DNA from: Kipferlia bialata
Taxonomy: Eukaryota
Length of the DNA stretch: 33,132 nucleotides
Direction: 5' to 3'
Assembly (NCBI GenBank): GCA_003568945.1
Contig: BDIP01000080.1
Location: 1 to 33,132 of the forward strand
The translations under genes and the position numbers were made by a program. Positions 679 to 28,733 of the stretch are shown one piece after another (position 1 is the stretch's first letter; the number at the start of each line of letters is the position of its first letter). The notes under the pieces were generated by a model. The model saw only the letters and a program-made list of their open reading frames with translations, ran no database searches and was not told the origin of the DNA.

Positions 679-714
<36 letters not shown>

Positions 715-770: not shown

Positions 771-808
<38 letters not shown>

Positions 809-1466: not shown

Positions 1467-1506
<40 letters not shown>

Positions 1507-4500
1507 CCCAGCTGACTTTGGGTGGGAGGGTGAGACTGTCATATACTTACCATTGTCTCTCCATACAATTATCTTTGAGATACGTGCCTCATTACCCTAA
1601 CTCCCCAGCTGAGTTTGGGTGGGAGGATGAGTCCATCATGGTCTTTGACTCTGGCACTGCTCTGAACAACTACGCCAACAGCAACCCAGGCGTCATATGG
1701 CTAGGTGGGGTCTTTACACATACTCATCATCTATTTTACCTATGTCATATATGTAGTAGTGATAGTAGTAACACTATGTCTGTATATTGTTTTATCTGTT
1801 TGTAGTATTGTATACATACCCGCTCTATTATGTATGCCGTTCATAGTATACACACCTCACCCCAGGTGTCTCCTTTGCCGGTGTGACTGACACTGAGACC
1901 CTCCCTGCCAACATAGACTACACCATACACTACAACCAGACCATTCTAGGTATGAGCATAGAGTCTGCATTCATGAATCTCGCTATATATATACTTAATA
2001 TCTGTTCCTACCCCCATACAATGACTACCTGTACATGACATCTTGTACATTTATAGTTATATATATAAATATATATAGTATTCATATCTACTCTGACCCC
2101 AGACAATGCCTACCTGTACATGACATCTTGTACATTTATAGTTATATATATATATATTGTATACTATATCTACTCTGACCCCAGACAATGCCTACCTGTA
2201 CATGACCGATGGACTGGACCCCCTGGCAGACGAGTATGGCAAGGTGTATGACTCAATTACATNNNNNNNNNNNNNNNNNNNNNNNNNNNNNNNNNNNNNN
2301 NNNNNNNNNNNNNNNNNNNNNNNNNNNNNNNNNNNNNNNNNNNNNNNNNNNNNNNNNNNNNTATATATATATATGACAGATGGACTGGACCCCCTGGCAG
2401 ACGAGTATGGCAAGGTATATGATATATATATGCATACTATATATAGATAATGTTTGTATATAGTAGTTGCCTTGTCTGGCTTCACCCTCTATGCCCAGCA
2501 TGATCTATATCCCTCTCTCTATATTTATATATATATTTATATATTAACACCCCAGGTTGCCTGGTCCGGCTTCACCCTCTATGCCCAGCATGCTGTGGAG
2601 AAGGCAGTCATATACGAGCAGACAGGGACAACATTTGACCCACTGGTAAGTGTATAGTCACACATACCCGTATATAGGTGTGTATATGAGTACATATAGA
2701 GTGTGTTACTATAATAGTTACCGCAATCGGAGGTATTATTAGACATGGATATCATTTGACCCACTTGTACGTATAAGTTTGTAATTTGATGTGTGTTGGT
2801 TCTATATATATCTGACTCGTATAAGTAGTAATTATTGGGTTCATACTCACTGTTCCTTCTCACACTAGGTCAAGGGATACCCCTCGAGAAGTCTAGCTGA
2901 TGAGTTCATGCTGCCAGGTATGGGATATAGCAGTAACATATATAAACACTATATACATATTGTGTGTATAATCTACTCTACTATACAGTGCTTGAGTTCA
3001 TGCTGCCAGGTGTGGGATGCTATGATATATGTATACATATACCATACTATGTATGTGTTGTAAGCAAACAGTATACCTGATGAGTTCATGCTGTCAGGTA
3101 GCGGATTACTATTACTATGTTGTAAGATATATACTGTGTATATGATGTCTCTAGGTATACAGTGCTTGAGTCCCTGCTGCCAGGTAGGGGATTGTGTAGA
3201 GCATTCAATACCGATAGTGTATTCTGCAATCCGTGAAATCGTAGTCAGTGTCGTCGTGCTACCAGATATGAGTGCAAGCAGAATACTGTAATTGTGTATG
3301 ATTCATTCTACATTTGAATGTCACTACATTCCTCCCCCACCCCCAGACCCCATGACCAGTGCCGTCCTGATATCAATGCTGCTGTCATATCAGGTAACTC
3401 GATGGTGATTCATGTATGTGCCTCTATTGCTTGCTCAGCACTGTGCATATACATTAGTGTGTGTGGTATACATGCTCCTGTCATATCAGGTGTCGTGACT
3501 CTCATCCACCTGTGTTACTTGGTACTTCTTGCTAATTCACTGTACATGCACACACATACATATCTCACTCCAGATATTCATGGTTGCCCAAGGTGCTGTG
3601 GTTGAGAAGAAACAAGGGAAACTGGAGGCTCTGAGAGTAATGGGAGTGAGGTATGGTCTCTATCTCGCTTACACAGAAATATGTATACTCTTCCTATATG
3701 GGAGTGATGTATATATATATATATGCTCTTCTGCTGACTGAACTGGCCCTCTCTTTTTTTGTCTCTCGCTCTCTCTCTCTCTCTCTCAATATATATATTT
3801 GTATATTATATGTATACTCTACTACGCTCTACTTTTACCCCAGAGACCCCCTGTACTGGCTGAGTTGGGCCCTCGTCCAGATGTTCATCTTCACCCTCAC
3901 TCTGATACCCTTCCTCCTGTTGCTGCACTTGATACCGGACTGTGACATCTTTGGATACGTGGATGTGGGTGAGTATATGTATAGCATATATAGTGTATAT
4001 AGTATGTATATATATATATGTGTTATAGTATATACCTGACTGTGACATATTTGGATACGTGGATGTGGGTGAGTGGGTGTGCTATACCTGTATACAGTGT
4101 GTGTACGATATTTGTATGAATCAGAATCAAGATGAGAGCTATTTCTTTCCATAATCCCATCTGCACCCCATCTACAGGTGTCACCTTCACCCTATTCTTC
4201 ATAATCGAGTATTTGTCAGTCTACATAATACCAGTAAATGTACTATATATATATATACATATTGTTACCCCTATATGTATGTCTTCCCGTTCTATCCTAC
4301 ACCCACTTCAGGCGTCACCTTCACCCTGTTCTTCATATTCGGCCTGGCAGCAACGTCCCTGGGACTGTTCGTGGGTATGCCGGTTAAGAGATATAGCGTA
4401 TATATACACATAGACAGCAACGTCCTTGAGACTGTTTGTGGGTAAGTATGTTGCGATGGTGATTAAATTGTCATCTCTGTTTCACGTATGTTCACATTTG

Positions 4501-6485
4501 AATTCATACTGATTCTGACCCCATGCTGTGTAACGACTGGCATCAATAATCAGTATATATATTATTATGTATTTGATCACGTTTATATTTATATATCTCT
4601 ATCCCTTCTGACCCCATGCTGTGTGACGACTGGCATCATCGGGGCCATGATCATGTGTCTGCTGATCACAATCACAGGTAGGGACTGGGGTTCAAGACTA
4701 CAATATATATCAGTATCTATATATGTACTCATGTACAGTATTCTGGATGTTGATCTAGCAGTGATAGGTAACTGCTTTCCACTGATACTCTCTATCCTTT
4801 GTCTCCATATTGTGTCTGAGTACTATTGTCACTCCTCTGTAACCCCCCACGTGATCGTACTCTATTTGCATATATATATATAGTTGTATCCATGTGACTC
4901 TCATGCCCCATGTTTGGCCAGATAATCTGTCTCTCTCTGTATATATATATATATATATATATATCCTAACCCTCAGGCATTCTGTGCCCCATGTTCGGCC
5001 AGATTGATGCCGATCTCATCTTCTACGATCCATCCTTCATACCCGTCGTGCTGCAAGTCATCCTGTTCAACATATTCCCGTTCATCCCACTGGCAGTATC
5101 ATTGGGGTACGTTAATAGTAATATAAGTATAGAGAGAGAGATGTGTATGCATGTAGTATCATCCTGTTCAACATATTCCCATTCATCCCGCTGGCCCTCT
5201 CACTAGGGTTCGTGGATACATTTTACATTGTGTTGCCACTCTCTCTCTCCCTCTCTCTACACCCCCTCTTCACCCCAGGGCCATGTACATCGTTGTGTTC
5301 CCCAGTGTCACTATCGACATGAACACATACGAGACAATCATTGTGCCACCTAGCGAGAGGTATTCATCCCACATTCTATGATAGTATTGCTGTATTTAGT
5401 ATCAGTATTTAGGCAAATACATATACAAAGTGTTTCACTGTACTGTGAACACATACGAGACAATCATGGTACCACCGAAGTGTATATACGTATGTATATA
5501 CTCATGTCAGGTTCACCTTTGCCATGCTGTTTGGGTCTGACCTCTATCAGTACGAGGGCATGGCCTGCATGGGGGGAGGTATGTATTCATGGCCGCGATA
5601 TATATATATATATATATATGATTGTATCTTTACTGTCACCCTCCCCCCCAGGCTGTTCCTATGACACCCCCCCTGTGGCCATTGCCCTGGTCAACTTGAT
5701 AGTCAGTGCGGTGCTGTGGCTGCTACTCACTTGGATAGTAGGTATTATATATAATAGATATACATATATATGACGTGGATAGTAGGTATTATACATAGTA
5801 GATATACATATATATGACGTGGATAGTAGGTATCTCCTATATTGCATATATGTAGTAATTGTAGTAGATACTTGTCAGTGCGGTGCTGTGGCTGCTGTTG
5901 ACTTGGATAGTAGGTATCTCCTATGCCATTCATTCATTGTTTTGAATACAGTGATTATCTCAAATATTGTAGAATCAATTTCCAATGTATAAATGTGTAT
6001 TGTATAAGCCGTACGTCTCTGTTTGTAGTATCAGTGTCACTATCACTATATACATTCCCCCACCCCAGGTGAGTGGATGAGCAAGAACGGCAGTATCAGT
6101 ATGAGTATGTGTCAGAATGTGTATATATCTATGTATATATATATGTGTCTATATATCTAACCATAGGGGAGTGGATGGCCAAGAACGGCAGCCCGGGTCG
6201 CAACCCCCTGCAGCTACTCCACAGGTAATGGTACATATAGATGTTGTATATTCTAGTGTTACTAGTGACTATATAGATACTCACTGTTCTTCATATGATA
6301 TATAGATATATATATATATAGATATGTCCTTCATTGACAGTGACCAGTATTGTATTCTCATGTCACATGATAGTAGTAGTATCAGTATATTCTCATGCCA
6401 CATGAAAGATACTATCAGGGTATCATCATTCTATTCTCATGCCCCAGGAGCTACTGGTCCGAGAGTGTCCCAGGCCAGAGTCAAG
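55..6485 (+). CDS. ABCA: ABCA exons 1-19: TM1, first exocytoplasmic domain and TMD1
   Basis: Exons: 55-142, 411-466, 1038-1138, 1609-1704, 1866-1949, 2185-2243, 2556-2645, 2869-2917, 3347-3393, 3574-3650, 3844-3968, 4312-4374, 4618-4677 (AT acceptor inferred), 4977-5106, 5279-5359, 5511-5578, 5652-5741, 6167-6224, 6448-6485. Translation includes FLIPIVIVIVLWQW, WSGFTLYAQHAVEKA, VVEKKQGKLEALRVMGVRDPLYWLSW, several hydrophobic helices and RSYW. Confidence 0.85.
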
Positions 6486-9400
6486 GTACGGCATATATAT
6501 ATATATATACATATATACTTACTGTTACATATATTATATACATCCATATAGTATCCCAGGGAGTGTCCCGGGCCAGAGTCAAGGTGCGGTAGAGTATCTG
6601 TATATCCATGTATACATTAATTATACATACATATTTGTTACTGTATTAGTATATACTCCCAGAGTGTCCCAGGCCAGAGTCAGGGTACGGCAGAGTATAT
6701 ACATGTATCCATATGCATCCATTAAATGTCCCATTGCACCCCACTTTCAGACAGGCACAAGTCTATGTCTTTCTTGTTATATATATATATAAAAATATGA
6801 ATATGCATACTCACCACTCCACACAGGCACAAGACTCTCTCTCTTTCTCTATGTATATATATGACTATATGGTATTTACGTATTAGTCTATACTCATCTA
6901 TACTCACCCCTTCAGACAGGCACAAGCGTGTCCCTGTCCCCTACAATGAGGCAACGGGTACAGCTGACAGGCTGGAGCCCTTAGACTCAGGTGCATATAT
7001 ACACCTGTACATAGTTGTCCCATGTGTATATATATGTAACTATAACAAATATATTGTACAGCTTACAGGCTGGATCCCTTGGACTCAGGCATTAATATAA
7101 CTATATACATGTCTAGTTATATGCATATCCATATACACCTAACCCGTAGATGTATGACAGGAGATTGTGTCTTTCCTAGCCATTTTATCATGATAGTACT
7201 CCATGTATATGTTTGTATATACATACACGTCTCACCCCCAGATGCATGACAGGAGATGGTGTCTGTACATTCTCTGTCTCTATGGGACCATATATAAGTG
7301 TATTCCTCCTCTGGACTTAGTACCTGTATATATATATATACATACATACCTAACCCTAGATGTGAGACAGGAGATGGTGTCTGTGCTGACACACCCGTCG
7401 CTGGAGAAGGCAGTGGTGAGTGTATGTATGCATATATCCGATTGTATACCATACATTGTGGAAATATACGTTTTTAGTGTGTATATATAGACATCCATCG
7501 CTGGAGAAGGCAGTGGTGAGTGCATGTATGTAAAAATATATATATTCAGATAGGTATGTATAGGTAGTTCGGCGATGAATACGACAGCGTTAGTATTGTA
7601 TGGTAAAAGCATTTATACTTGTATTTCTGGTTGGATTCTCAATTCGTCTGACCCGTGTCCTTCATTTTCACTCTAGGTTGTTGCCCACTCTCTGGACAAG
7701 ACCTTCAGGACACGGGGCAAGTCATATAACAAGGCGGTGGACGGAATCACGCTCAGGTATATATATTTATATATATGTATATATATGTATATATATATGC
7801 GTGTGTCTTACACGTATGACCATGGTACTCAACAAGTATATGACTTGATCTGATACAACAACAATGGATGGATTTGGCCTCAGGCATGCACTGCATCTTG
7901 CTTCACATAGGAGTGTTTTGTAATATACTCTTAATCCTATATATGAGTGTTCTTTATAGTAGTGCATCTCATCCGAGGATCAAGCAGGGCCAGACCTTCT
8001 GTCTCCTGGGCCACAATGGGGCAGGGAAGAGTACCACCATAGACATGCTCACAGGTACAGTATTTGTCACAGTAGTGTATATAGAGTGTGTATATACATA
8101 AGTATCACAGTTGAGATGCTCACAGGTGTATAGGCAGTGGCATTAATGTATACGTGTTGTATCAATGATATATACAAGTACCACCATAGACATACTCACA
8201 GGCATATATATATAGTGTACAAAGTCCCCCAGTGACATACCCATAGGGTCATTCGTACTTAATGGCCACAGTCGTACCATCCTTAGGCCTAACCCCAGGC
8301 ACCCTGAAGCCCGACAACCCCGCCTCCTCCAGACTGGGCAAGGCCTGGATCAGTGGGCTCTCACTCAACAAGCACCCGCTGCAGATCAGGTACATGCCTA
8401 TATATTTGCTTATGTCTTTACTAATACCCACAGTACTATTTCTTTCAGTCTTACCCTCACAGGCGTACTCTAGGCATCTGTATCTAACGCCCACAATATA
8501 CACACCCTAACACTATATCAACCACCACCATCCATTCATTCCATTTATACCCACCCCCAGGCGCACCCTTGGCATCTGCCCCCAGGGCAACACCACCATA
8601 TGGCCATCCCTGACACCCATGCAGCACATGTGGATAGTGGGCATGCTCAAGGGTGTGTAATATATAGGATATGCACTGGTATATATATGTATATATATTT
8701 ATGGATATGAGTGTGTGCTGTAAACCTATATGTGAATATAAGTATATACCCATGCAGCACATGTGGATAGTGGGCATGCTCAAGGGTGTGTATATATGAT
8801 ATGTATATATCGTATATGTATATGTGAGTGTATTCTGTACGTATATGCAGCACATGTGGATAGTGGGCATGCTCAAGGGTGGGTATATTGGATATATATA
8901 TGTGTGTGTATGTATGTATATATATGTATATATATACACCCATGCAGCACATGTGGATAGTGGGCATGCTCAAGAGTGGGTATATTGGATATATATATAT
9001 GTGTGTGAGATGTATGTTTGTATATGTATATCCATGCAGCACACACACACATATATATATATGTGTGATATGTATGCACTCTCACCCCGGACATACCCAA
9101 GTGTCCAATACACACATATGTATATATATATATATGTGTGTGTGTATATATATATGTATGTATATATATATGTGTGTGTATATGTATGCACTCTCATCCC
9201 CAGGCATCCCCAAGTGCCTTATTCAGAACATGGCCATTGTGTTGTCTTGCCATTATATACTATATGTGTTCTGTATCTACTCTCTATCTACTCTCTATCC
9301 ATCCCCACCCCCAGGCATACCCAAGTGCCTCATTCAGAACATGGCCCTAGAGCTGCTGGGCTATGTTGATCTACTCGATGTCAAGAACAAACCGGCTGGA

Positions 9401-12400
9401 CAGTACGTGACTTGGATGTATCACTTGTAGACATTGTATGTACTAGAGTGACACACATACATCACCCATATACCCACTCTCATGTCAGGACAGTACGTGA
9501 CATGGATATATATCACATAGATATTTCACTCATTGGTAGTGTGTATACTGTCATATGAGGTGGATCTAGGTGGATATATATACCCTCTCTCATGTCAGGT
9601 TCTCGGGTGGTATGCTGCGGCGTCTGTGCATAGCCATGGCATTCACAGGGTGCCCAAGGCTGGTCATACTGGATGAACCATCGACAGGTGTATGAGATAG
9701 ATATAGATAGATGGATAGACATATATATAGATAGATAGATAGATAGATGAACCATCGACAGGTGAGTTTAGATATAGATATATATAGATATATATATATA
9801 TATATAGTTAAGCAGTATGTGCAGGTCATACTGGACGAACCATCGACAGGTGTGTGTAGAAGTATGGATATAGTACAGGTATTCTGATATGGACGAGCCG
9901 TGTAGGAGCGTGGGTACACATGGTGTACCTCAGTATGGCATCACCATTGTATTCATTGATACTATAATATACTGCGACTGATCCTAGGCCTAGACCCCAT
10001 TGCCAGGCACATTGTGTACCCTATATATACATATGTATAATTCTATATGTGTATAGTGTAATTCACTTACTCCAGGCCTAGACCCCATTGCGAGACACAC
10101 TGTGTGGACTCATACTCTATATATATGTGTGTGTGTATATCGTGTGTAGTGAATAGTCTAACCCCAGGCCTAGACCCCATTGCCAGACACACTGTGTGGA
10201 CTCGTACTCTCTGTCACTCTCTCTCTCNNNNNNNNNNNNNNNNNNNNNNNNNNNNNNNNNNNNNNNNNNNNNNNNNNNNNNNNNNNNNNNNNNNNNNNNN
10301 NNNNNATTACTATTTCTAAATCCCAGGCCTCGACCCCATTGCCAGACACACTGTGTGGACAGCAGTGGAGGCCATCACTGGGAAGAGGCAGCAGATGCCG
10401 ACATACGGCAGGAATGGACACCTCAGAAGGTAACGTATCATTTGGCTGATGCCAGTAGTGCAGAGATTAGTACTTATATCTCTTCTGGGATGGTGGACCC
10501 TCCCTCACTATGTACAATATTCATACATTATAATATGTATTGTATACATTATAATATGTAAACATAAAGCCTTACCCTAGGAAGTGGGCTCCCCCACCTG
10601 CTATTACGAAGTAGTACTAGTAGATACTATATACATTCAAATACTATGCATACCATACCCTGACACCTAGGAAGTGGGACCCCCCACTCACTCTGTAGAG
10701 TGTGATCATACCCATATCCTGTATCCATATATACAGTGTATGTATATATATACATATACAGTGTTATCCTTACCTTAGGAAGTGGGCCCCCCCACCTGCT
10801 GTGATGCTGACCAGCCATGACATGCCAGAGGCAGAGAGGCTGGGGGACGTGGTGGCAATCATGAGCAAGGTGGGGATGTATAGTGTGTCCTACTAGTTGT
10901 ATATGTATACTAATTGCTATATATGTATATGTATCTGTGTGGCAATCATGAGCAGGATGGAGACATACATAAATGGAATGTTCTTACATGTATATATGGA
11001 TATGAAGAGATATATAAGGATATGAAGAGAAAGATATGTTTCAGCTATATGTATATCCATCTTACTGAGTGTGGTGGCAATCATGCGCAAGGGATGGTGT
11101 ATCCTTATGGAAATATCCCTTATGTAGCAATAGTGTAGCAATCATTCTGCCTCTTGGAAGTTGTGTTGGCTATTGGCAAGTTGTGGATGCGATACCAGTT
11201 CTTCCACTCTCTCACCCCAGGGTCAGATTGCAGCCCTTGGCACAGTCATGCACCTCAAGGTATGTGTGTGTGTACATATGGAGATACAGTCTGATTCCCT
11301 ATTAATACCCCTGATTCTCTCTGTATGTCAGCTGATACCAGTATTTTCTTACACTCTGTACATATATGTATAGATACACCCACTGACCCCAGGCCAAGTT
11401 TGGGACAGGCTTTGTGATATCAGTTGTGGCAGACGCTGCTAACCACACGTCCAGGATAGCACGGGCTATTAGGAGGTATGTGAGATATATATACATAGAG
11501 TGTAGAAATAGTGTGTACTACTGTATGTCAATACTTCTACCATAGCATAGGATATTTGGAGGTGTATACATATGTATTGTTCATAGTATATATTTGCTGT
11601 ATATCCATACTCTCCCGAGTATAGTATAGCCTCTGCATACATATATCTCACTCAGGTCATGCCGTGATATGGACATTGACTATGTGGACCTCGCACCAGA
11701 GCTAGAAGGTACCACAGTTATATGGTATTGTGATACACAAGGCAGTAGTTTGTATACATACATGAATATGCATATGTATATATATATATCATAGACTATG
11801 TGGACCTGGCACCAGAGCTTGAAGGTATTGGTTGCATCATAACCTACAATACTATTTTCAATGTATCACAGTACAGCACACGCACACACACATACATATA
11901 TTTATATATATATATATATATACATGTCCTTATACCCCAGGTGTCACTTCCGATGCCCAGGAGGAGGAGGGACCGAGACAGTGGGGTGAGGGAGAGGAGG
12001 GAGAGCGAGAGGGAGAGGAGGAGGATGACGAACCTGAGCCAACAGGCAGAGGTATGCATATATGGCAATGTATACTATATATACAGTAGTCCAGGTGTTG
12101 TGGAACCGGCCTATTCTTCTGCTTACCTGATACTGATACTGATACCTCAGGTGGCTTCACTGAGGCCCTCATGGATCTATACGACGACCCAGAGTCTGAG
12201 GTGCGTATGTATACCAATATATATACCATTATATATACACTACACCATTTGTGTCCATTATTTACTCTATTCATTGCCTCATGGATCTATACGACGACCC
12301 AGAGTCGGAGGTGCGTATGTACTACTGTATGTGTATTCTCATTAGTATATTTGACGACTCAGAATCTAAAGGGTGGACAGTGAGTCATTTCGCTCTCTCT

Positions 12401-15166
12401 CTCTCTCTGTCTCTCTCTACATGACACTGACTGACTGAGTGTTTCTCTAGTGACATGAACTCACCCCCTAGGCCCGTGCCAACATTGTGACCCTTCTGGA
12501 CAGAAGTGCCCAGAGCCTCACATACAGTGTCAGCCAGGTAGTTATATATATATATATTACATACTATATATATATATATATATTTGTTGCGTGTTCACTT
12601 TCAGTGTCAGCCAGGTAGTTATAGTTATTAGTAGTTATATATACATATATGTCACTGTATATACTTTAATATGTATGTTGTGTGTTCACATACAGTGTCA
12701 GCCAGGTAGTTATTAGTAGTTATATTATATATACTATATTATGTATGTTGTGTGTTCACATACAGTGTCAGCCAGTTAGTTATTAGTAGTTATATATATA
12801 TAATACAAAATATGTATATATGTATGTATATGTTCACATACAGTGTCAGCCAGGTATAGACTTAGTAATGCATATGTATAACTATTACATAATATGTATA
12901 TATATGTATATATTATGTGTCCCATAAAGTGTTAGCCAGGTAGTTTTATGCCATACAGTTTTGTTTCAGATGTGTGGTGTTCTCCACTTGCATCATGTAA
13001 TGAATGCTCTTGTATTTGATAACGTGTCCTTCTTCATTTCGAGTATTCCATTTGATACACTCTACCATTTAGGAGTATCTGTGTTATATACCATGTCACT
13101 ACTTGTGCATTTTCCCGGACTCACCCCCAGTCCACCGCGACCAAGGTCTCCTCCTCGTATAGTGGAATATTTACATATCCGCCACTCTCTGTATTCCCAT
13201 AGAATTGTTCAACCACTTGCAAGTACTCACCCCCAGTCCACTGAGACCAAGCCTCACAACAGTATACAATGTATATATACTCCATGCATTCCCATTCTCT
13301 ATACTGATACCAGTCCACCGAGACCAAGCTCCCCACCCTCCTGTCCAGACTGGAGGCCAGGCAGGGCAGGGGGTTTGAGTACATAGAGGACATATCATGC
13401 ACACAGGTGTGTTGGAAGTAGTGTATATATACACTATATATACAATATTCAATGAGACATTTCGCGTATCCACTATGTCCCCCTCTGTCACCCGCCCCCT
13501 CACCCCCAGACCAGTCTGGAGGAGGTGTTCATCAATGTGGGCCACAGGTACAGTATGAGCACTATTGTAGTGAATATGTCTGGAATTAGTTACAGTGATA
13601 CTCATACTTACTTACAGATACTGACATTGCGGTGTCGCTATCAGTCTATGTGGTATCACCTGTATATGTATGCATTGTATACTCATGGTATCAGGGCCAT
13701 GGTTGCCTCCCATGCGCAGTGTCTGGCCAACATGCATCTACCTGAGGGCACGGACGAGAGCAGACGCATAGTGCAGCAGGTATATATTTGTATATGTATA
13801 TGTATATCACATGTATATCACACATATCATTTCCCTTTCCTCTCTCTACCTCTCTGCCTAGTCAGACTTGCCGTATGGATCTATATGTGTGTAGTTACTT
13901 ACCCCTTACACTAGCGAGAGGTTCTTGCCTGGGCATACGTGTGTATACGTATATATTTATATATATACATATATGTATGTATAGTAAGATTGTATGTCAA
14001 TATATATATCTAACCCTAGCGAGAGGTGCTAGCCTGGGCAGGCACTGACAGCTCTGAGCAGTGGATTGAGTCCACTCCCCCTCCTTCCCCCTCCCCACAG
14101 ACACAAAGTGCAACAGACAGGTATGTGTATGTATAGGCATATACAGTTGTAGTATATACAATACACTGCACGTCTGACAGATGCTATGCTTGTATATTGT
14201 ATGGTACACAATATTATGGTTGTACGGTCATTACACAGACATCTAGACAGAGTGCCTCAGATCAGGTGTATGTACTCATGTATGTTGTGCTATATCCATT
14301 CATTAATGTCACGTTCCCATCTCTATGTCTTACCCCCAGTTCAGCTTGTATGTATCTATATATATATGGAGTATTCCCTCTATGTCTTACCCCCAGCTTC
14401 AGCTCTGTGTCTGACAAGTATATGTATGAAAGTGTGAATATGTGTATTACATTTGTGTGATAGGATCCAATGTTGTGCTTACCCCCAGCTTCAGCTCTGT
14501 ATCTATATACATATGGAATGTTTCCTCTGTGTCTTACCCCCAGTTTCAGCTCTGTCTCTGACAGCAATGCAACCACCTCGTCTAGTACAGGGGAGATCAC
14601 AACACATGGGAACAAGGAGAGCAGGTGAGGGAGAGATAGAATGTGTGAGAAATGAGAGACGTGATGTGATATTGGTATAGTGATTGTCACTCCCTACCGC
14701 TCATCATAGGAGAGAGAGAAGGAGACGCGAACAAGAGGAGGCAGAGGCAAAGGTATGGGGCTCTCATACATACCTACATCCTAAATGCTATATCTCTCAG
14801 TTCTGATCTTTGAAGAGCCCACTGTACAGACCTAACACTTGTAATGGTAGTGACATGTCTGTGCTTATCTCAGTATTTGATCTTTCTGTAGTGTCTCGCT
14901 ATTTGTTTTGTATTGAGCCGTATGCATGTGTATCTGACCCTCAGATTGATGTGCTCAACCCACCTCTCAAGAGGCCTAGATACGCCAGGGGTCTCTTTGC
15001 CAAGCTGTGGGCGGTGGACAGGTGAATATTATTGTATTTATACATATGTGTACATATGAGTATATATATGATGTATTTATAAGTAATAGGTTTGCATGTA
15101 GTAGCATATACTTACTAGGATACATACTATCATTTGTACGCTGTGGGCTGTGGACAGGTTGTAATA

Positions 15167-15200
<34 letters not shown>

Positions 15201-18178
15201 GTGTATGTGTATTCTTTTATCCTTCTTTCACTCTCTCTCTATATACTATGCCCATCTCTCTCTTACCAATAGGACCCGTTCCTGTGGCCTCATGGGTCTC
15301 TCTACACATAACAGTGTATTATATATAGTGTAATATACGTAGAGTATATGTCTCTTACTCATAATAGGACCCGTTCCTGTGGCCTCATGGGCATCTTCCT
15401 CCTGCCCTTCCTCTGCCTCATGATATCATGGCTGCTGGTGGCACATCTCTTCCCATTCATGGTTGACTTGGTGGATGAGTATGTGGGTAAGGGAGAGACA
15501 TACATATATATGTGTATACAATGTATCGCTTGGTTGACGAGTATGTAGGTAAATATATATTTATATACTATATACAAGTGTAACTAGGCTACCGTGTCTC
15601 TGCATATACTATCAGTTGTGCATCTCAATCATATGCCCCTGACCCCCCAGCTGGCTACATCTATTTATAGTATAAATTTTATACTGGTATGTATTTCCTC
15701 ACCCACCAGGTGGCAAACGTATATTCATTGATATATATACCCCTCACCCCAGCTGGCTACATCGATGAGGCTGAGGCAGCCTGTCAGCTCTGTATGCTCA
15801 GCAACTACGTCCCAGACAACCTGGTTAGTGTGTAGTACTCGCAGTATGAAGTATAGTTGACTGGTCTTACCCACATTCTAAGTCTCTATGTATACATATG
15901 TTGCCTATCCCCAGTGTGCCTATCTGTGCCTGATTACCAGCCCCCAATTGATACATGGTAATATGTATATATATATATATATGTATATGCCAGTGTCTGA
16001 CATTCCAGTACCCCACCGAGCCCTGCCAGGGGTATGACATGCTGGGCAACCCATATGTATGCACACTGCTAGACCAGTACAAGGGTATGTAGTGTGAGAT
16101 ATACGTGTACATATGTGTAGTGTGAGATATGAGTGTACATATCTATGTCTGCACACTGCTAGACCAGTACAAGGGTATGCTTATGAGAGATATACGTGCA
16201 TATATACGTCTGTACACTGCTAGACCAGTACAAGGGTATGACCGTATATATGCTTCTTACACGCAGTGTTCTCTCCCTGTTAGTTTTCCATATATACGGT
16301 CTACAATCATAATCAGTATCCATCTTACAGTGTCTGTACTCTGCTAGACCAGTACAAGGGTATGAGTACATGCTATATAGTTCTAGTTCCAGTTCTAGAC
16401 CAGTGCAAGGGGATGCTTATGAGAGATATGTGAATAGATATATGTATATATCAAGGCTACGAGTATAAGCTTACTTCTAGTACTCTATTCTCTCGATATT
16501 CTCATGTTCAGTTCCGAAACCATACTAATCAGCATATATCTTAGTATATTGAAGAGGTACAGTTCATATCCATCTAACAGTCAGGCAATGTACAGTTCCA
16601 AGAGGCCACAGTGTTTGGTGACCTTTCTCCTAGGTATGGTGATCAGACACTTCTATATGGTTGTAATTATGACACGCGTCTATTGCACATTACATTACAT
16701 GTATTCTAATATCAGCATGAAGCGCTATGCCGTACCCGTGTCCATGACTGTGTTTGATGGGACTAGGTTCCCACTTGACAAGGTAGGGATATCTCCATTG
16801 TGTCACTCTATCCTATTTGTATTCACGGTAGTCTCCGGTCCAAGGAGGAGAGGGCTGTCTTGGTTGTACTGTGTGACTTCTACTCAGTGTATATATATTG
16901 ACTGTCTCACCCCAGCTCTCTGATGTCTCCTCCATGTCCAAGCAGGAGACGTCCATTGACATGTATAGTTATATATGTCTATGCCAATATATACATTCAT
17001 ACTGACCCCAGCTGTCTGATGTCTCCATCATGTCCAAGCAGGAGAGGGCAGAGTATGACCCATGGGTGGAACTGGCACAGCTCGTGGAGGCAGAGGTACA
17101 TATGTAGTGTACTTCATACGTATAATGATTCATCGATTTTGCTTTTGGGAGTATTGGGCACAGCTCGTGGAGGCAGAGGTACAAGGATGTAGTATATGGT
17201 ATATATGTGTGAGTGGATGAATGTATGTATGTGACACTGTGTCTGGCACAGCTGGTAGAGGCAGAGGTAGGAGGATGGCATAATGTTTTCACAATTGTAT
17301 TGTATTATATCGTTTATATAGGTGTATATGTGTGACACTGTGTCTGGTACATATAGTAGAGGTAGAGTTATATGGGTACTGTACAGAAAGTGTATGTATG
17401 ATTATGACATAATGCATGGTGTCTGGCACAGTTAGTAGAGGCAGAGGTATGACGTACGCACTGTGTTGAAATATATTGGAATTTGTTCTTCTGAACAATA
17501 TTGTAGCGTGTCTGACAACTGGTATAGGGTATTCATGTTAGTGAGAGTTGTCTCACGGCCTCTGTCTCTCACCCCAGCGATCCCTCCTCCCTACTGACCT
17601 AGATGGCACCCCTATTGTGGCTGCCCATCATGGGTCCCTGCCCCCAGCAGAGTCCATGGTCATTAAACAGGTATGAATGGATATATATCAGTCATATCGA
17701 ACATGTGTTTCATATATTCAATTATTAGCACTGTAGTCCTTGTATAATGCCTAACGCCAGATTGCCCCCACCTACTCCAACGAGAGAGAGCACGTCGCCA
17801 ATGACCTGGAGTACCTACTGCTACAGGTATGAGGGTGTATATATATGTGTATATATGTTGATATATATGTGTAGGTGATACCCTTGATGTATCTGCTACC
17901 ACAGGTATGGCATGTTTGTAGATAGAGTGCATTGTGATGTATACAGAACAATGATGATTACCACACACTGTCCCTCACCCCAGTCGGAGGTCTCTGACAT
18001 ATATTATACGCATAGTCTCTCACTCTCTCCCTCTCTCTCTCTGTCTCACTCCATAAAATCATATGTATAAACGCATTGTGACTCACCCCAGTCTGAGGTC
18101 TCTGACATATACACAGCGGCTGGGCTGGATGACCCATACCTCCCAGGTATATGATAGTATGCCATACCTCCATATATA

Positions 18179-18222
<44 letters not shown>

Positions 18223-21200
18223 GATTGGAGTATGCGTCATGTCATTATGAGTCATTCAGTGCACCATCCCTCTATGACCCATACCTCACAGGTACAGCAG
18301 TGTTATACGTATTCTGTGTGTTAAGATACTTAGTGTAGAATACATAGTATTGTGAACGCATATGCACATATATACACTGCCAGTATACACAACCATCCCT
18401 CTGCCCCCCAGGTGTCAAGGGCCTAGTGGCCCAGTACACAGCATAGTATGACATACCTACCTACATATGAATATATATATATACTGTGTTCAATTGTCTT
18501 GTATCATATTCACTTATCATCAGGTGTCAAGGGTCTAGTGGCCCAGTACCCAGCTGCCATCGGGGAGAGATACGCCAACAACGTGACATACGACCACTAC
18601 CTGGACACATTCGCAACCATCGTAGGTATCGCCTATCAGATGTCTTTTCATATTATACACACACACATAAATATATGTATATATATAACATATTACAGCA
18701 CATGGTCCTCGACATACGACCACTACCTGGACACATTCGCAACCATCGTAGGTATGGCATCTATCAGATGTATCATCATTACAGTATAATAATGACCACT
18801 GGATGCTATACCGATATGCAGAACCGGCATAGTGTATGTAATTCTTCTCTCACAAACACTATACGTTATAATATCGTGTGGGCCTCTTGTTCAACTCCTC
18901 TGACCCTCTCATGCCCAGGTGTGGATGAGCCCCTCTATCATGATGCATGGACACTTGAGAACTACGTCATGTACCAGTTGAGGTGTGTATATGTATATGT
19001 AGATGTATGTAAATTATAAAGATTGTGCATATGTTACCTGTATAGACACTGTTACTACGTCATATATATAGTATGTGTATAGTATATGTATAGTATGTGT
19101 AGTGTATATAGTCACTCATTAGCAGGTCCCACTACACCCGTGCCTCATCTGATGCAAACTACATGGAGGAGCCGGAGGTAATTGCAACAGTATAATATGG
19201 GTATATAAAAATATATATATTTAATGTAGTATGAATACTTGTAACTACTACATGGAGGAGCCAGGGGTATATAGAGTATATTATATATATATATGTTATG
19301 GTGTGAATACTTAGAAGCAACTACATGGAGGAGCCGGAGGTAATTATTATAGTATAATACATATATGCATTGTGTCAAGATGTATATATGTATATATATT
19401 TACATTGTGTTATGATTACTAGTAACAGCCTCATGGAGGCGCTTAAGGAATGAGGTTTATAGTGTGGACAGTGGTGTTCATGTTCATTTGTACACACTGA
19501 CCCCTAGGCCATCCTCCAGTCTGTTTTCAGTATATGGTATACATAGTATATATAGTATACTAATGTCTGTGTATGAGCACCCTAACCTTCAGGCCATCCT
19601 GCAACCCCTCCGAGATCTCTACTCCCGTGTCCCCTTAATGACCCTGTACCTCAGTGACTCCCCTGACAGTCCTGTCCAGCAGCCCACACTGCAGACATTC
19701 ATGCCACCTATGACAGGTAGAGACTGGACACACATGTATATATACTAAATGTATGCTATATGTATAGACATTGAGTCAACGCTGCAGACATTCATGCCAC
19801 CTATGACAGGTGCATAGCATATATATATGTAGTGATATATATACATATATGTACACCATGTACTCTAATTATATAGTCCACACTCCAGACATTCATGCCA
19901 CCAATGACAGGTATATCATATGTATAGAGTAGATGTATATAGTTATACATAGTGTTGATATATATACTATTTACTCTGTGTATACAGACATGTAGCCAAC
20001 ACTGCAGACATTCATGTCACCAATGACAGGTAGACACTGCTCGCATTATTCTATATCTACATATGGATGTTCTATATATGGCACACCCAGCCTGCTAGGA
20101 GATATATTCTATATAGTGATTGGTATACAGTTCTGACCTCAGGTGTGCGTCCCTACAATGCCCTGCAGCTCAGGATGAGTTGGACCGGGATAGAGGTGTG
20201 TATGTGTCTTGCATCTAAGTAACTGTTCTCTGCATAATGATGTATACTATATACTTCTCTCCCCTGTACCACCTCACCCCCAGGAGGGCACTGCCGAGTC
20301 CTATGTGGCCAAGACATCAGAGACTATCAACGCACCACCCAGCACACCTAGGTACCATCAGATACATGTCCTTACCTACTGACAGTATAAATTTACGTGC
20401 TTCCTTCACTGGCTATACTGTGGAGTTTGTCTGTGTGTCGTCCTCTCTGGCTCTATAATCATGTCTCCTTCTCACCCGACAGAGGGTCGGGTCTCTTCTC
20501 CAACCCCTTCTCTCTGCCTCCCCACGTGTCACTGGTCAATGACATACATGCCAAGGTACAGCGGCAGTTTGTGGTCTATTTGAGATCTTTCTCATAGGTC
20601 ATTTGAGTCTTCTCATATGTGTACGCTCTCTGCTCCGTAATTTACTTCCAGTCTTGTGTATACATATGTATATGTCTGGTCTAACCCCCTAGCTGAGTGG
20701 CGCTGCCCTCCGATGCTATTAGATGACTCTTGATGTGTGTATATATACTAATATACATATCTATAGTAAGAATATTCGCATTCCCGTTGTCTAACCCCTT
20801 AGCTGAGTGGCGCTGCCCTTAGGTCTGCCACGGGGGAGACACGGGACGGGGCAGGTACACATGGATATGTGTTATTGATAGATATATACACGAGATGGGG
20901 CAGGTACTGCAATATCATACAAGTTATTATGTATATATTTCTATAAACAGGATGTTAACCCCAGGCATCACGGCCTCCTTCCAGCCCTTCAAGTACATAT
21001 GTATATATATATATATATATGAGTGCATGTGCAATGCTATATACCCTCTACCCCCAGGCATCACGGCCTCCTTCCAGCCATTTAAGTACACCAGGGACTA
21101 CTCCTTTGCAGTGCTGGTGGAGACCATAGCCCTGTTCACTGCTGTCATCTTTGTGTCCATAGCTGTCTTGAGTCTGCTACCAGTCTTAGCATATCAGCCA

Positions 21201-24200
21201 GGTGGAGACATTATATATGGACATATATATATATATATGTAGTTGTATGCTGCATGTACTTGCATAACAGCCAGGTGGGGTCATGGATATATATGTATAG
21301 ATATGTACATATATGCATGATACACTTGCATACCTTCCTCCAAGAGGAAATGTGCCACTTGAGTGCATGTCTAACCCGCAGTGATGGAGAGAGAGCTGAA
21401 GCTGTTCAGTCTACTACAACTCAAGGGCATGCCTGCATACGTGTACTGGATCACTCTGCTCGGATACGACATGGCCCTGTGTGAGTGCTACATGTATATT
21501 GTTATGTATTTGTATATGTGTATATATGTATATACCCGATTTGTGTAGGTATACCATCAAGAGCTGTGGTTCTGTGATTGGGCATTACTCGGATACGACG
21601 TGGCCCTATGTGAGTGAAGTATTATGTTTATGTGTACCTATGAAGGCATTTGTTAATAGCCACTTGATGACCTTCTCTGACCCAGGCACCTGCATGACAC
21701 TGTTCCCCAATGTATGAACGGATATAGATATATTAATATATGGGTGTATATTAGTCTCTCTATGCTATTCTAGCTATTCTGACTCAGGCACCTGCATGAC
21801 CCTGTTCCTCTATGTCACGGGGCACCTATTCAGCATTGACGCAATCACAAGGTATCGGCATGTATATATATGCTATATATATATACTATATTTACTACAT
21901 ATATAATGGTCATAGACGCAATCACAAGGTATCGGCCTGTATCATATATATATATCACTTTAGTGTATATACCGTTTTGTTATGAATACATATTCGGCCT
22001 GGCTACTATATTGGCCAAGTTTCCTATTTGTGTCTCTCCCTGTCAGCCCAGGGTGTCCTTCCTGGCCAGTGACTCTTTCTGTTGTCATGACACCATACTA
22101 ACCCTCTGACTCTCTCTCTCTCTATACTATCCTTTTTTTCTCCATACTCTTTCCCCAGGATGTCCTTCCTGGCCCTATCTGTCTATCATCTGATATCTGA
22201 TATGAATATACTATATATACATCACCAATCTCATCCCCAGGATGTCCTTCCTGGCCTTGGTAGTTGTCATGACCATCATGTACTTCAACCTGGTCTGCTT
22301 CGCCATGCTGGTATCAGCATTCCTGCCCAACACTAAGGTACCGTGGATTGTAGTATTTAATAGTATGTACCACTGTCCTCCCCAACACTAAGGTTCACAT
22401 GCAGTGCAGTGCATGTTGGTGTGGCTCTTGAAGTATCCCATATCTCTCATCCAGTATAGTAAGTCAATACAGCGTTACACATACTGCTCCATACCCTAAC
22501 TCCCCTAGGTCTCCAGTGTCCTCCTCAATGCCTTCTACAGTTGCACAGTCGTGGTCACCATGATATTCTTCAGTGTCTATGACCCAGTCACCCTGTGGCA
22601 CGCACTCATACCACCCATGGTACGGAGTATACACGTACTACATATATATTTGTGTGTGTCTATATGCAAATATGGTTCACTTCTGTGTCTATCACCATCC
22701 TCTGCCCTCCCTCACCCCCTAGCTCTGCGTGACCCTCATCGGCAAGATGACATTCAGGGGATACAACATTGTGTCTCTGTTTGAGTCTCCCCTGATGCCC
22801 TTGTTGGCCATAGCAATAGGGGTCGGAGGTACTGTAGATGCTGAGTATTCATATATTCATATCACTCCAATGTGAACATTTACACTCGTCTTGTTACTGG
22901 CACCTAGCCATAGTCATCGTCTACAGTGTTATGCAGAGTTGCCCCATGTCTCACCCCCAGTGGTCTATCTGATCCTCGCTGTGTACTTTGATGCAGTCAT
23001 ACCAAAGAAGGTTGGTGCATGACATATATATTGGATATAGTTATATAGATATTTGTGTATATATTTCACTATGTCTTTGAAACCCTTGTTTATATGTATA
23101 TATGAGCACAGTATTTGTATAGTCATGTCCAAGAAGGTGGGGGGATGCCATGTATATATGTATATATAATAATCCATATATGTGTATATATGTATTTGGG
23201 AGAAGGAAATTTGCTCTTGTCGTGTTCTAATATACATCCTATCGTTAACTGGATACTGCATCGTTCAGCAGTGACTGCCAAGTATGTTCATATATACAGC
23301 AATACCCTCACCTCCAGGGCACTCTGGGTGTGAGGCGGTCTGTGTTCTACCCCCTACTGAGTATCATAGACATAGGGACCATGCTGCTAGGGTACATCAT
23401 GTGCTGTGGGGTCAGGTACGATGTGATATGTATTATATATATTTATATATATATATATACATATAGTCTATGAACTATGTATATCCATAATGATGTCTCT
23501 CATGTGCTTAGGTCATTTACATATTGGGTTCATGTATATGAAACTATGTGTATATAGGCACACGTTGAGAATATGTGCTGGTGAGATGGGTAATAAATGG
23601 TGTTCTTGACCTTGCATGGTGGCTGACCCTAGATACCGACCCAGGCATAGGAGGTCTCCTGTCCAGGCGCAGGGTCAGCCAGAGTACATGAAGGAGGCGG
23701 GTGAGGGGACATGTATGTATTTATATAGTTTACATATTTCTATATACATGTATGTATATAGAGACAGAGAGATGTCACATTGGCCTGAGTACATGACCCA
23801 GGCCCCGATCCCTTCATGCATGGTATTAGTGTATATAGATGTAGTTATATATATATATATATATATGTATGTATATATCTACATGTCTCATATCTTCTCA
23901 TCGCCAGGCCCCGATGCCTTCATGCCAGTTGGTGGTATGCCTGATGAGTACTCGGTGATAGCAGCCAGGGAGACATACGAGGTATATATATGTATATATA
24001 TATATGTGTGTGTGTGTGTTCTACCTACATATATACAGTGATAGCAGCCAGGGAGACATACGAGGTGGGAGGGTGTTGTACACTATATACTTTGTACATG
24101 AGTTCTATGGATATTTATCATAACGAAAACATCTCACTACCAATGTACCCACTCCTCTCACCCCCCAGGCGAGTCAGGCTGGGGATGATGTCAGTCCCCC

Positions 24201-25347
24201 CGGCCACCCCAGAGTGGACCAAGGGGAGGGCGAGGCACTGGGTGATACCGACTATGCACAGAGAGAGGGGGAGAGAGAGGCAGAGGCAGAGGCAGGGGTG
24301 GTCAGAAGTGCCCAGCTGGATGGAGGTATATATATGTATATGGGTGTGACACTCCAAATGCGCTACTGCCCCACCCATCAGAGTATAGCATGTACTATCC
24401 ATTGGTGTCTACTCGCCCTACCCTACAGTACTCTAGTCATCTGTTATAGTCTTAGCATCGTATATATGGATATGTGTATACACTTGCTGTGTTCCCTTAC
24501 CATCCAGTCCGAGAGATCCAGCCTGACTCCGACTGTCCCATCGACCAAGGTCACCCAGACACAGAGGGGATGGGAGGGGGAGAGAGAGAGGCAGACGACG
24601 AAGAGACGTCCATTATGCCCACAGTGTTTGCAGTCAGAGGCGGGGAGGTAGTGGTTGACTCTAGTCTTTCTATCCCACTGCACATACACTGAGATCGTCG
24701 GCTAGATGTCTCAACTATTATACCGTATGTTTACTCACCCCCAGAGAGACCACAACACTGTCTGGGACGGAGGGTTCGAGAGGGACGACTTTGCAGGTAT
24801 ATTCATGCATATATATGTGCATATATATATATATGTGTGTGTGTGTATATATACGGCATATGTGCATGAGGAGAGGGAAGACGTTGCAGGTTGGTGTGCA
24901 TATGTACATACCCATATGTACATACCCATATGTACATACCCATTTGTATATACCCATATGTAAGTATTCCGCAGAGACCATATTCTTTATACGACACCGT
25001 CATGTCCCTCACCCTTAGGCCTTGCCGGTATGCACTCCTCCTCTGTGGACAGTGACACCCAGAGCAGTGCCAGGTGTGTGTGTGGTGTATATACATGTTA
25101 ATATGAGCTCATGCATGTAATAGTATAGTATATATACACCCAGAGCAGCAGTGCAGGGTATGGATATACTGTTGGTACATGAATATGAATATGTGATACA
25201 GTATCTGTACCAGACCAGCAGTGCTAGGTGTGTATAGGATACACATATGTATATGAGCTCAGTAATGTATGCACACATATGTTGTTTGCACATATATGTA
25301 TCATATCACCCAGGTCCAACCAGAGTATACATGGATATTGGGATTTA

Positions 25348-25382
<35 letters not shown>

Positions 25383-28300
25383 GTCCATGACTCCTCTCTC
25401 ACCTCAGGTCCAACCAGAGTGTGGACAGTGTCACTGGCATCACCACCGCAGACACAGGCTCACCCACATTCCTAGTCAACCAGGTACTGTCATGTATACA
25501 CAAGGTGTATAATACACTTTCCAATGTCTTAGCCAGCGAAGGCCTCCCTACATTCCTGGTCAACCAGGTGTGGACTGGCACTGGGACTATGCTGTGTATT
25601 GATGGAATAGTATCATTCTACACTTCCCCAAATGCCCATATCAGTATTGTCCCAATATATCCTGCCAACTCTCTATGTCTTATTACTATGCCATTCTGTC
25701 ACTGTCTCCCCTGAATCACTTTGTATCCATACCCCCACCCCTCACCCCCAGTCTGTGTCCGGTCTGAGTCTGGGTCTGGTATGCTCATATGCAATATATA
25801 TATATATATATATATATATTATCTATATGTATACACCCCTCACCCCCAGTCTGTGTCCGGTCTGAGTCTGGGCGACATGAGCTCAGTCAGTGACCACCAG
25901 GTGGGGGATATGGAGATATATATGTGTAGATGTATATCATATGTAGACAAATTTCATATGTAGATGAATATCCGTAGTATAATCATATGTATCACTATCA
26001 GTCAGTGGACACCAGGTGGGGTTGTGTATGTGTTTCTATGGTCTAGTGGTCACGTGAATTGTGTATATAGGACATATAGTAGGTTTGCATCTTGACTAAC
26101 ACCCAGGCCTCCCCCCTACCTGGTCAAGCAGAGAGTCAGGACGGAGTGGCAGCAGTGGCCACTGACAGAGAGGCAGGGAGAGAGACTGGGGTAGAGACAC
26201 CCCTTGTGGAGAGAGAGGCAGCCCAGCCCGACAGTGCAGGTGTCTATCTATCACATATACAAGCACCATGGTGTAACAAATAGCTACGTGTCTTATAGGA
26301 TAGCTATGTGTATATGAGGTATGTGCACCATATCCCTGCCCTCATACCCAGACCCCCCTGTGTCTCCAGACCCCAGTCCAGCACAGCCAGCACTGCCACC
26401 AATAGGTACATGTTTATATATATACATCTATATATATACACTATATATCTGTTGGGTATATATGTGTATCACATTATACTTGAATACCACCAATAGGTAC
26501 ACGTACTATACATGTGTATACTGTACATTTGATTAGTACATGTACAATATATATACTATATATTGGATTTCTCTGTGAAGTCTCTGTTGACCTGTGTGGT
26601 GTTTAGTGTACATCACTAGGATAGTCAGTTCTTACGCTGTGTTGAGCGTCTGCATCCATGTATCATGGCGTCATTCAATAGTGTCCCTCACCCTAGGCGA
26701 CCTCTATAACACCAATGTGTTTGAGACATCAGTCACATCCCAGCCCACCCTGCTGGCATCCCAGACAGAGGTGAGAGATGATATGTAGATATATATACAT
26801 CAGTCATTAATGATTACTGTACTATGTGAGTGTATCTCTCTCACCCCCAGGCCTCTGTGTCAGACAGTGATGACCAGAGGGACAGGGGGAGACCCATAGC
26901 CATATCCCTGCCACTGCTGCCAGGTGAAGGGGTTGATTGTGTATATACCTCTAGGATGATAGGGTAACTACATTCAATAATAGTACAACCATATACCTAA
27001 TCCTGGCCCTATATTGAGTACAGTTCATATACATTGCCCCCTGATCCTAGTCCCCTGTCGCAGGACCAATGTGCATGACGTGAGGGACACTGTCATGAGA
27101 CACAACCCGGTGGACATAGATGTGATGGATGAGAGGTATGTGGTTCATGCATTGGGTGCTATATGTATATATACATACATTATTACTATATATTATAATG
27201 GCATTACTGACGTCATGGATGAAAGGTGGGGTACAGGCATGTGTATATACATATATACTATGTAGAGTGACATTGTTGGGATGGACGTCATGGATGAGAG
27301 GTGGGGGATACTGGCATTAGATGTAGTACATATAGTATATAGTGGCATTGTTGACATAGACGTCATGGATTAGAGGTATGGCGATTGTGGCAGTGTTGAT
27401 GTGTGTGCCCTGTGTTCTTTCTGGCTTCCAGTGGCCATATCACAGTATATACTCATTCTGACCCCCAGGAGGGAGGTCGCCACCTTCACCAGGGATACCC
27501 ACCCACTCATAGTGGCCAACATGCAGAAGTACTACCCACCCAGGTATGTACATATATATAGTATCATCAGTCTGTTCATCAGACTCTATATACATATGGC
27601 AGAGTAGATGGCAGAAGTACTACCCACCCAGGTACTGTAGGATTGTCACTGAGTGTATACCAGTGTTCAAATGATGGTTATCAGTGTCATTTGTGTATTG
27701 TTTGGCACTGATGTTCTGTATCTCCTTTACCCCAGATTCGTTGCCGTGCGTGATGTCTGTTTCTATGTGGAGAACAACACGGCAATGGCACTGTTGGGGC
27801 CTAATGGGGCAGGTCAGGCCGCGTAGGGTGCATGTGTATATAGTATATGTATAGTATATGAATAGTATATGTATAGTGCAATGGGGCAGGTCAGTCCACG
27901 TGTTGTGTATTGTATACACAGTGTTTAGTGTAGTATACATGAGTTGTATGCCGCCTGTAGGGCAAGTTAGTCTACGTCGGACCCATGTATACTAGTGTCT
28001 ATTCTGTATGATGTGACTGATGTGTGTTCTCTTCCCAACTGTGTCAGCATCTTCCATGTATTGTATGTGTCGTCTGTGACCATATACACGTATGAATATC
28101 AGTGAGTGATGTATTGGTATCAGTATCATATGCAGTCACCCACCAAGTGCACAATGTACCCTCAACTCTGTCTGTCCATGCCTTCCCCTCACGTCCAGGC
28201 AAGACCACCACCATCAGAGCAGTCACGGGACTCACAGCTCCAACCAGGTGTGTGATTAGTACTGGTGTTGGTCCCGTAGTTGTGTACATATCAGCTTTAC

Positions 28301-28693: not shown

Positions 28694-28733
<40 letters not shown>

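Follow-up and report, generated by a model that had tools for sequence, protein, structure and literature searches.

Why should fragments of exons that lie inside introns, where they are probably not translated, differ from the exons they resemble mainly at silent sites? The question is raised by a stretch of 33,132 nucleotides from Kipferlia bialata (contig BDIP01000080.1 of assembly GCA_003568945.1, positions 1 to 33,132 of the forward strand; this whole stretch is referred to as the window), which carries a single gene, encoding an ABCA-type ABC transporter. Its introns contain many partial copies of the edges of the adjacent exons, which will be referred to as echoes. A sequence-only reading had noted, from examples between positions 3930 and 27376, that these copies differ from their exons by silent changes at many junctions independently, on both donor and acceptor sides, and had proposed no mechanism. 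Here, we demonstrate that the bias is present in the complete, unselected set of echoes and that it is too strong for duplication and decay within one lineage. The source that we favour, with some reserve, is a set of other functional alleles.

Echo Census

The exon model was derived from the window alone by calling exons from acceptor motifs and frame continuity, and its numbering is that of the sequence-only reading. It comprises 95 exons with 7,471 coding bases (median exon 76) and 94 introns (median 230 bases), 93 of them GT-AG and one GT..AT, which together give a single open frame of 2,490 amino acids with two ABC cassettes. Silent changes had been taken to confirm the reading frame of each exon, and this was borne out by the public protein model, P0003, which agrees with ours in every aligned residue (2,469 of 2,469).

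The gene and the echo set are as follows.
55..32394, + strand: ABCA-type ABC transporter gene, 5′-partial, according to the exon model, P0003 and PF00005; it hosts all echoes
303..32107, + strand: full echo set from the codon-blind census, 119 copies of the edges of 58 exons, distributed over 76 junction sides

For the main census, every exon was scored against the two introns adjoining it, without gaps and without regard to codons (cut-off score at least 12). The 188 exon/adjacent-intron pairs yielded 119 echoes compared to 1.0 expected from a control of 1,500 non-adjacent pairs. The splice site was reached within 3 bases by 107 of the 119 (42 acceptor-side, 65 donor-side), at a median offset of 112 bases, and an anchored copy was present at 71 of the 188 junction sides of the gene. 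The splice dinucleotide was intact in 96 of these 107 copies (acceptor 39/42, donor 57/65), and 34 of the 119 echoes matched their exon exactly. No echo covered a whole exon, the maximum being 76%. Polarity was strict, with copies of donor ends exclusively downstream and copies of acceptor ends exclusively upstream of their exon, and in all 42 within-intron pairs the donor copy preceded the acceptor copy. An independent second census using fixed 18-base windows detected 109 matches of at least 13/18, with none in the controls, and added 12 copies to the main census; it found zero copies of the wrong polarity at 12/18 or better.

Reads of two runs, X1 and X2, were compared over positions 52-3960 (exons 1-11), which lie almost entirely outside the range covered by the sequence-only reading. 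Contigs of X1 carry the echo-bearing introns of this region with one letter different, and the echoes are thus truly present in the DNA.

Silent-Site Bias

Mismatches between echoes and exons were distributed over codon positions 1, 2 and 3 as 46/21/117 (n = 184), and the binomial test that had been proposed for a complete set of echoes clearly demonstrated a third-position excess (p 4e-17 against one third; 1e-4 against one half) rather than a uniform distribution. Counting each site-allele only once gave 46/21/102 of 169 (p 6e-13 and 0.004, respectively). Among 173 changed codons, 107 were silent, 61 changed the residue and five were stops. For all 119 echoes, nonsynonymous divergence (dN) was 0.035 and synonymous divergence (dS) 0.21, resulting in a dN/dS of 0.17. 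Since sibling echoes of one junction are not independent, one echo per junction was drawn in 2,000 resamplings, which gave a dN/dS of 0.11-0.31 with a maximum of 0.455. The bias recurs on both sides of the exons as had been claimed, with ratios of nonsynonymous to synonymous differences per site (pN/pS) of 0.26 on the acceptor side and 0.16 on the donor side. The fixed-window census yielded 51/29/114 and a ratio of 0.30, whereas chance matches gave 151/125/119. Within this census the bias was weaker among the 21 most diverged matches (12-14/18), with a ratio of 0.68, probably because the 18-base window extends beyond short echoes.

The third-position changes tracked codon degeneracy: 2/75 (0.027) for Met and Trp codons, 30/346 (0.087) for two-fold and 77/446 (0.173) for four-fold degenerate codons, the two-fold class comprising 24 silent transitions and 6 transversions. 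This argues for a filter that worked at the amino-acid level. CpG decay, transition bias and AT bias were considered as causes of the silent excess and fail to explain it; CpG-type changes, for instance, account for 11 of 77 changes at four-fold sites. Differences common to sibling echoes were silent in 17 of 17 cases.

The non-silent differences behave otherwise. They affected 52 of 725 codons conserved in the K. bialata paralogue P0001 and 13 of 164 variable codons, and because they are equally frequent at both, these differences, about 40% of the total, look like neutral decay. The splice dinucleotides of the echoes decayed at a rate similar to that of the amino acids (12 of 214 bases changed). 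Silent divergence was flat, with 0.163 in the 71 echoes without any amino-acid change compared to 0.178 in the 17 with two or more (rho -0.07). We therefore conclude that each echo has two layers, a silent baseline of about 0.15 and unselected decay of about 0.03. A gradient of amino-acid change away from the splice site, as expected for chimeric units, was not clear among the echoes (ratios 0.17, 0.20, 0.28 and 0.11). Nominally, the farthest echoes carried more amino-acid changes than the nearest ones (19/441 compared to 9/447 sites).

Might the bias reflect chosen examples or an assembly artefact? The listed examples were indeed present, the acceptor echo of exon 25 (8463) and one echo of exon 80 (27226) only in the fixed-window census, but the list was selective: it left out non-silent changes, namely F>I in the exon 12 echo, P>S twice in the exon 55 echoes, and I>M as well as a Glu-to-stop change in the exon 80 echoes. 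Moreover, the scaffold has two gaps of N, both inside echo-bearing introns. The bias nevertheless persists in two codon-blind censuses with a chance-match control, and the separately assembled contigs of X1, which may be the window's own sample, match the echo-bearing introns, so that this explanation is scarcely credible.

Splicing and Translation of the Echoes

A bias of this kind would arise without difficulty if the echoes encoded protein, either as small alternative exons or through an RNA route of another kind in which an exon end is replaced by its copy. The splice dinucleotide kept in most anchored echoes is in line with this idea. The sequence environment of the echoes speaks against it: an acceptor-like motif was found upstream of only 1 of 65 donor echoes compared to 101 of 949 random intron places, an in-frame donor ends 10 of 38 acceptor echoes, which is no excess, and the echoes contain the five stop codons mentioned above. 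In addition, 118 of the 119 echoes are absent from the public model, and copies of the wrong polarity are lacking altogether, unlike in decayed whole-exon duplicates. RNA cover was sparse (run X2, presumed to be RNA, has 4 records over 52-3960); in the only spliced RNA contig, exon 2 follows directly on exon 1, and the echo at 303 is passed over. Taken together, the echoes are probably not translated, and we regard an origin of the bias in translated copies as very unlikely.

The status of alternatively spliced or mutually exclusive exon duplicates was rejected as well, as the copies do not possess an in-frame acceptor and donor of their own (1/65; 10/38). In mutually exclusive tandem exon duplicates, two copies diverge at silent sites; echoes differ from them in covering at most 76% of an exon, in lacking a second splice site and in their strict polarity.

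The remaining echo concerns positions 10168-10204. There, P0003 repeats LDPIARHTVWT before exon 28, inside the first cassette, and the echo adjoins a gap of N. As the peptide is single in the paralogue, the 12-residue repeat of P0003 is probably a gene-prediction error.

Acceptor-like motifs are depleted just upstream of donor echoes, as if spliceable mini-exon copies had been purged.

Duplication and Decay within One Lineage

A pseudogene, be it processed or unprocessed, shows some third-position excess when compared with its parent gene, with a dN/dS near 0.5 or above, whereas the echoes reach 0.17. In a clonal lineage a floor near 0.5 would be expected because only one of the two copies is constrained at any time. 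Duplication and decay were simulated under 8 settings with 400 runs each, keeping the number of differences per echo and using a transition bias (kappa) of up to 8 (observed about 1.4). The simulations gave on average 69-91 silent differences and at most 111, compared to 112 observed. The data are fitted by a constrained path roughly 4 times as long as the neutral one. Neutral duplication of a constrained exon within a single lineage was thus rejected by both the ratio (0.17, range 0.11-0.31, against about 0.5) and the correlation (rho -0.07).

The flat silent divergence also rejects clock-like models, be it with slow echoes or with fast exons: the observed rho was reached by them in at most 0.75% of runs, compared to 4.5-12% for a model of baseline plus decay. 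One such clock model would treat the echoes as frozen snapshots of a single lineage, in which the silent sites of the exon change about 4 times faster than the same sequence in the intron. The exclusively silent differences shared by sibling echoes would fit, and the model was not rejected by the triplet test described below. It fails on the pS/pN correlation, however; CpG-type changes are few, and in the intron DNA next to the echoes, change is faster rather than slower. We consider frozen snapshots most improbable.

Selection might also act indirectly. If exchange on the same chromosome often moved an echo into its exon, bad copies would be purged and the echoes would stay compatible with the protein. 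The exon-like part of the echoes is in fact far better kept than the intron part, and according to PMC3087553, unequal or intra-strand crossing-over makes comparable arrays in amphioxus, the so-called mirages, unstable even in somatic cells. Yet clonal two-way exchange combined with lethal selection gave ratios of 0.55-0.60 in three settings with a diversity parameter theta of up to 0.8. A clock slowed in this way predicts that pS and pN rise together, which is not the case, and the amino-acid changes in the echoes ignore conservation. Furthermore, no skip from an exon end to an echo was present among the X1 joints listed (15 of 18), in contigs that drop rare forms. Indirect selection thus appears quite unlikely to us.

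Origin of the Silent Baseline

The silent baseline requires two copies that work at one time. These could reside in one cell lineage, the donor being either a homologue that had diverged within an ancient hybrid or asexual diploid or a closely related paralogue that was subsequently lost. Two constrained copies would then lie on the path without any need for regular sex, and K. bialata does possess ABCA paralogues, P0001 (75% identical) and P0007 (36% identical). P0001 itself is ruled out as the source: at 164 codons where it differs, the echoes carry the residue of their own exon 151 times and that of P0001 4 times. A second allele or close paralogue of at least 85% likeness was not seen in run X1 over 52-3960. 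A mixture of two sources would over-disperse the silent counts (P 0.024), and some codons show three silent states (in exon 3, CCA/CCT/CCG and ACT/ACC/ACA). We therefore regard a second copy within the lineage as unlikely.

We favour instead, as somewhat better than an even bet, the view that echoes are untranslated, mirage-like junction duplicates, stacked head-to-tail in the intron and presumably spliced out, whose exon part stems from other working alleles in a recombining population of high diversity. The spread of silent divergence among the echoes agrees with this: a coalescent-like exponential baseline gave P 0.29, one constant baseline 0.022 and two sources the value given above, the margins in favour of the mixture being small. 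When a forward toy model was run under five clonal settings, the ratios were 0.53-0.60 with or without two-way exchange and selection. Allowing recombination between exon end and copy lowered the ratio to 0.39, 0.26 and 0.19 as the ratio of recombination to mutation (r/mu) rose from 10 to 100. With theta 0.2 and r/mu 100, pS was 0.168, pN 0.032 and the ratio 0.19, at a silent diversity of 0.16. Run X1 shows one haplotype over 52-3960 at even depth, including a 1,360-base piece without any other letter, which would suit a culture that is haploid or homozygous.

The following sequence of events is proposed. Its starting point is observed: copies take in only the splice-site side of the exon and lie downstream of it for donor ends and upstream for acceptor ends. 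Selection would have purged any copies with both splice sites or of opposite polarity, unless such copies never formed. Once in the intron, a copy would decay neutrally and accumulate about 0.03 changes per site. The extra silent differences, about 0.14-0.17, would have accrued at a time when exon and copy both served as working exons, each in a different individual. The two might have met when a recent duplicate and its exon took part in ordinary crossover or conversion. Alternatively, an unequal or one-sided exchange might have occurred directly at the exon match, the sole part alignable between alleles. Finally, the correlation with intron length described below corresponds to about 100 extra intron bases per copy.

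Several observations weigh against an origin from other alleles. P0003 takes one echo as an exon, with LDPIARHTVWTR inserted before exon 28, which fits the echo at 10168. The baseline-plus-decay model fits the pS/pN correlation marginally (P 0.045-0.12). A triplet test capable of excluding single-lineage histories directly gave no clear outcome, the less-silent echo branch carrying 5 silent and 16 non-silent changes, and three-allele sites numbering 4 compared to 1.5 expected (p 0.07). The toy model is small (N 250-300) and its parameters were picked to meet the target, so that it argues for sufficiency and is no proof. A noisier first run, which otherwise followed the same trend, gave 0.27 at theta 0.05 with strong recombination; as this value lies inside the bootstrap range, the level of diversity is loosely bounded. 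Metagenome scans turned up no other allele, strain or relative, and diversity and recombination are hence deduced from one gene of one strain. The intron sides of the echoes, finally, are less well preserved than their exon sides.

This last point deserves attention. The intron side was in the top 5% of unrelated-intron controls for only 15 of 103 copies, identity is down to background level some 10-15 bases away from the splice site, and 9.6 kb of unmasked intron contained only 5 intron-only repeats compared to 119 echoes. Intron halves are thus far less alike than simple duplication predicts, which implies either a very fast turnover of the simple-repeat introns or exchange confined to exon matches, with units arriving as blocks from other alleles. 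Intron length clearly tracks echo number (rho 0.81), the median being 146 bases for introns without echoes, 344 with two, 500 with four and 681 with 6.

As a tentative extension, for which we would give less than even odds, the introns may be stacks of intron ends from many individuals. Exchange between diverged alleles would begin at the exon edge and end by microhomology without Ku-type joining, pushing the old exon end into the intron, thereby building much of the intron DNA and leaving a readable archive of alleles in every genome. Microhomology at the distal joins was weakly suggested (P 0.04).

Published data are in line with the favoured origin from other alleles. According to PMC8516963, metamonads keep meiotic genes and lack Ku70/80 (Ku-type end joining), fornicates are also without Rad51A, and direct observations of a sexual or parasexual process are lacking for Metamonada. 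A silent diversity of 14.1% is given for the outcrossing nematode Caenorhabditis brenneri in PMC11925023.

Relation to Known Systems

Silent donor cassettes in antigenic variation are untranslated copies that look protein-constrained. The amino-acid changes of echoes, in contrast, are blind to conservation, and echoes repeat the resident protein and store no variants.

The closest known structures are the mirages of amphioxus, described in the relevant sections of PMC3087553 and PMC3902484 for Adh3, the globins BflGb6 and BflGb9, troponin C and PGBD5. As depicted there, mirages are tandem copies across an exon-intron boundary, at either exon end and with AG/GT kept; they are reported not to disturb splicing, and amphioxus is highly heterozygous. 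The echoes likewise occur in tandem as units spanning the boundary, with AG/GT signals kept. Mirage units are described as 81-100% identical over the unit, whereas intron halves in Kipferlia have mostly diverged; minisatellite-like likeness over the whole unit is confined to a minority such as the exon 35 array, and the copies are therefore called mirage-like. Mirages are known from single loci in these sources, whereas the Kipferlia gene has anchored copies at more than a third of its junction sides. The words "synonymous" and "silent" are absent from the main text of the amphioxus globin mirage paper, and our literature search, which did not extend to supplements and subscription papers, retrieved neither a description of such copies in Kipferlia nor one of silent-site bias in mirages, nor the interpretation given here. 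The structure itself is thus known; new are the density of the echoes, the rejected single-lineage null model and, from one gene of one strain, the interpretation as leftover alleles.

If that interpretation is correct, a single genome holds a record of recombination in a group without observed sex, and junction copies could be used to test for recombination and to estimate the silent diversity of a population from a single assembly of any intron-rich genome that has them. The more tentative view of introns as stacked intron ends would mean that one cultured strain reveals regular outcrossing in a metamonad together with about 15% silent diversity. The longer introns found with more echoes point to a route of intron growth. 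As a warning, a silent bias does not prove that an intronic copy is translated, and gene predictors may mistake such copies for exons.

Individual Echoes

The echoes inspected individually are given below.
730..985, + strand: three acceptor-side echoes of exon 3 (730, 845, 942), Pro as CCA / CCT / CCG
1213..1403, + strand: three donor-side echoes of exon 3 (1213, 1297, 1378), Arg AGA versus AGG/CGG, Thr ACT versus ACC/ACA, one stop
4032..4068, + strand: donor echo of exon 11, 2 silent changes
4180..4207, + strand: acceptor echo of exon 12, 1 silent change besides F>I
4525..4545, + strand: acceptor echo of exon 13, preceded by non-canonical AT like the real acceptor
5159..5195, + strand: donor echo of exon 14, from the codon-blind census
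5874..5913, + strand: donor echo of exon 17, CTA>CTG and CTC>TTG
7491..7515, + strand: donor echo of exon 21, 2 silent changes
8463..8482, + strand: acceptor echo of exon 25, 15/18 in the fixed-window census, 4/4 changes silent by eye
8748..9043, + strand: four donor-side copies of the exon 25 end, aligned exon part identical, intron parts diverged
9204..9235, + strand: acceptor echo of exon 26, 2 silent changes
9988..10201, + strand: three acceptor echoes of exon 28, including the copy at 10168 that fits the 12-residue repeat added in P0003
11790..11824, + strand: donor echo of exon 32, 3/3 changes silent
12595..12939, + strand: donor array of exon 35, five units, the most minisatellite-like array
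16144..16410, + strand: four donor echoes of exon 45, from the codon-blind census
17157..17446, + strand: donor echoes of exon 48 (17243, 17423), CTC GTG versus CTG GTA and TTA GTA
19779..20029, + strand: three donor echoes of exon 55 (19779, 19875, 19994), 5 silent codons besides two P>S
20965..20997, + strand: acceptor echo of exon 60, 2 silent changes
27226..27375, + strand: donor echoes of exon 80 (27226, 27281, 27350), from the codon-blind and fixed-window censuses
29642..29812, + strand: two donor echoes of exon 88, each of 53 bases and more diverged than any others, with 7 and 6 silent codons and 1 residue change each

An X1 contig covering 1053-1340 was identical to the window sequence. 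The first exon 88 echo is 91% alike on its intron side despite nine differences in the exon part, which points to mosaic histories.

Host Gene

P0003 bears the NCBI name "ABC transporter A, ABCA, partial [Kipferlia bialata]" with PF00005 and PF12698; in our model, PF00005 matched exons 23 and 27. It differs from our model in skipping exon 13 and in the extra repeat before exon 28. Membership of the ABCA family is evident from the full-length two-cassette protein, from its relatives, which are ABCA proteins, and from collinearity with P0001. The latter was reached by a protein search with a single exon, and a search with P0001 in turn led to P0003; the other single-exon protein searches gave no match. 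P0002 was set aside as an unrelated repeat protein, and a micro-exon at 14247, assumed at first, was dropped from the exon model.

The 94 introns in 7.5 kb of coding sequence correspond to a density of 12.6 per kb; for K. bialata, a free-living fornicate, 124,912 introns are given in the relevant part of PMC5874029. Exon 92 (31319-31377) is present in this gene and in P0003, with no counterpart in P0001. Intron 44 contains, at 15915-15957, an exon-like stretch behind an acceptor-like motif, which the frame does not need and which is in neither public protein. The acceptor of intron 22 (7975-7977) is GAG rather than YAG, and the public model uses the same site. Intron 12 (4375-4617) ends with AT instead of AG after a normal branch motif, as does the acceptor echo at 4525, and this ending explains why exon 13 is skipped in the public model. 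The GT..AT intron is likely real; paralogue P0001 keeps exon 13, with 16 of 20 residues identical.

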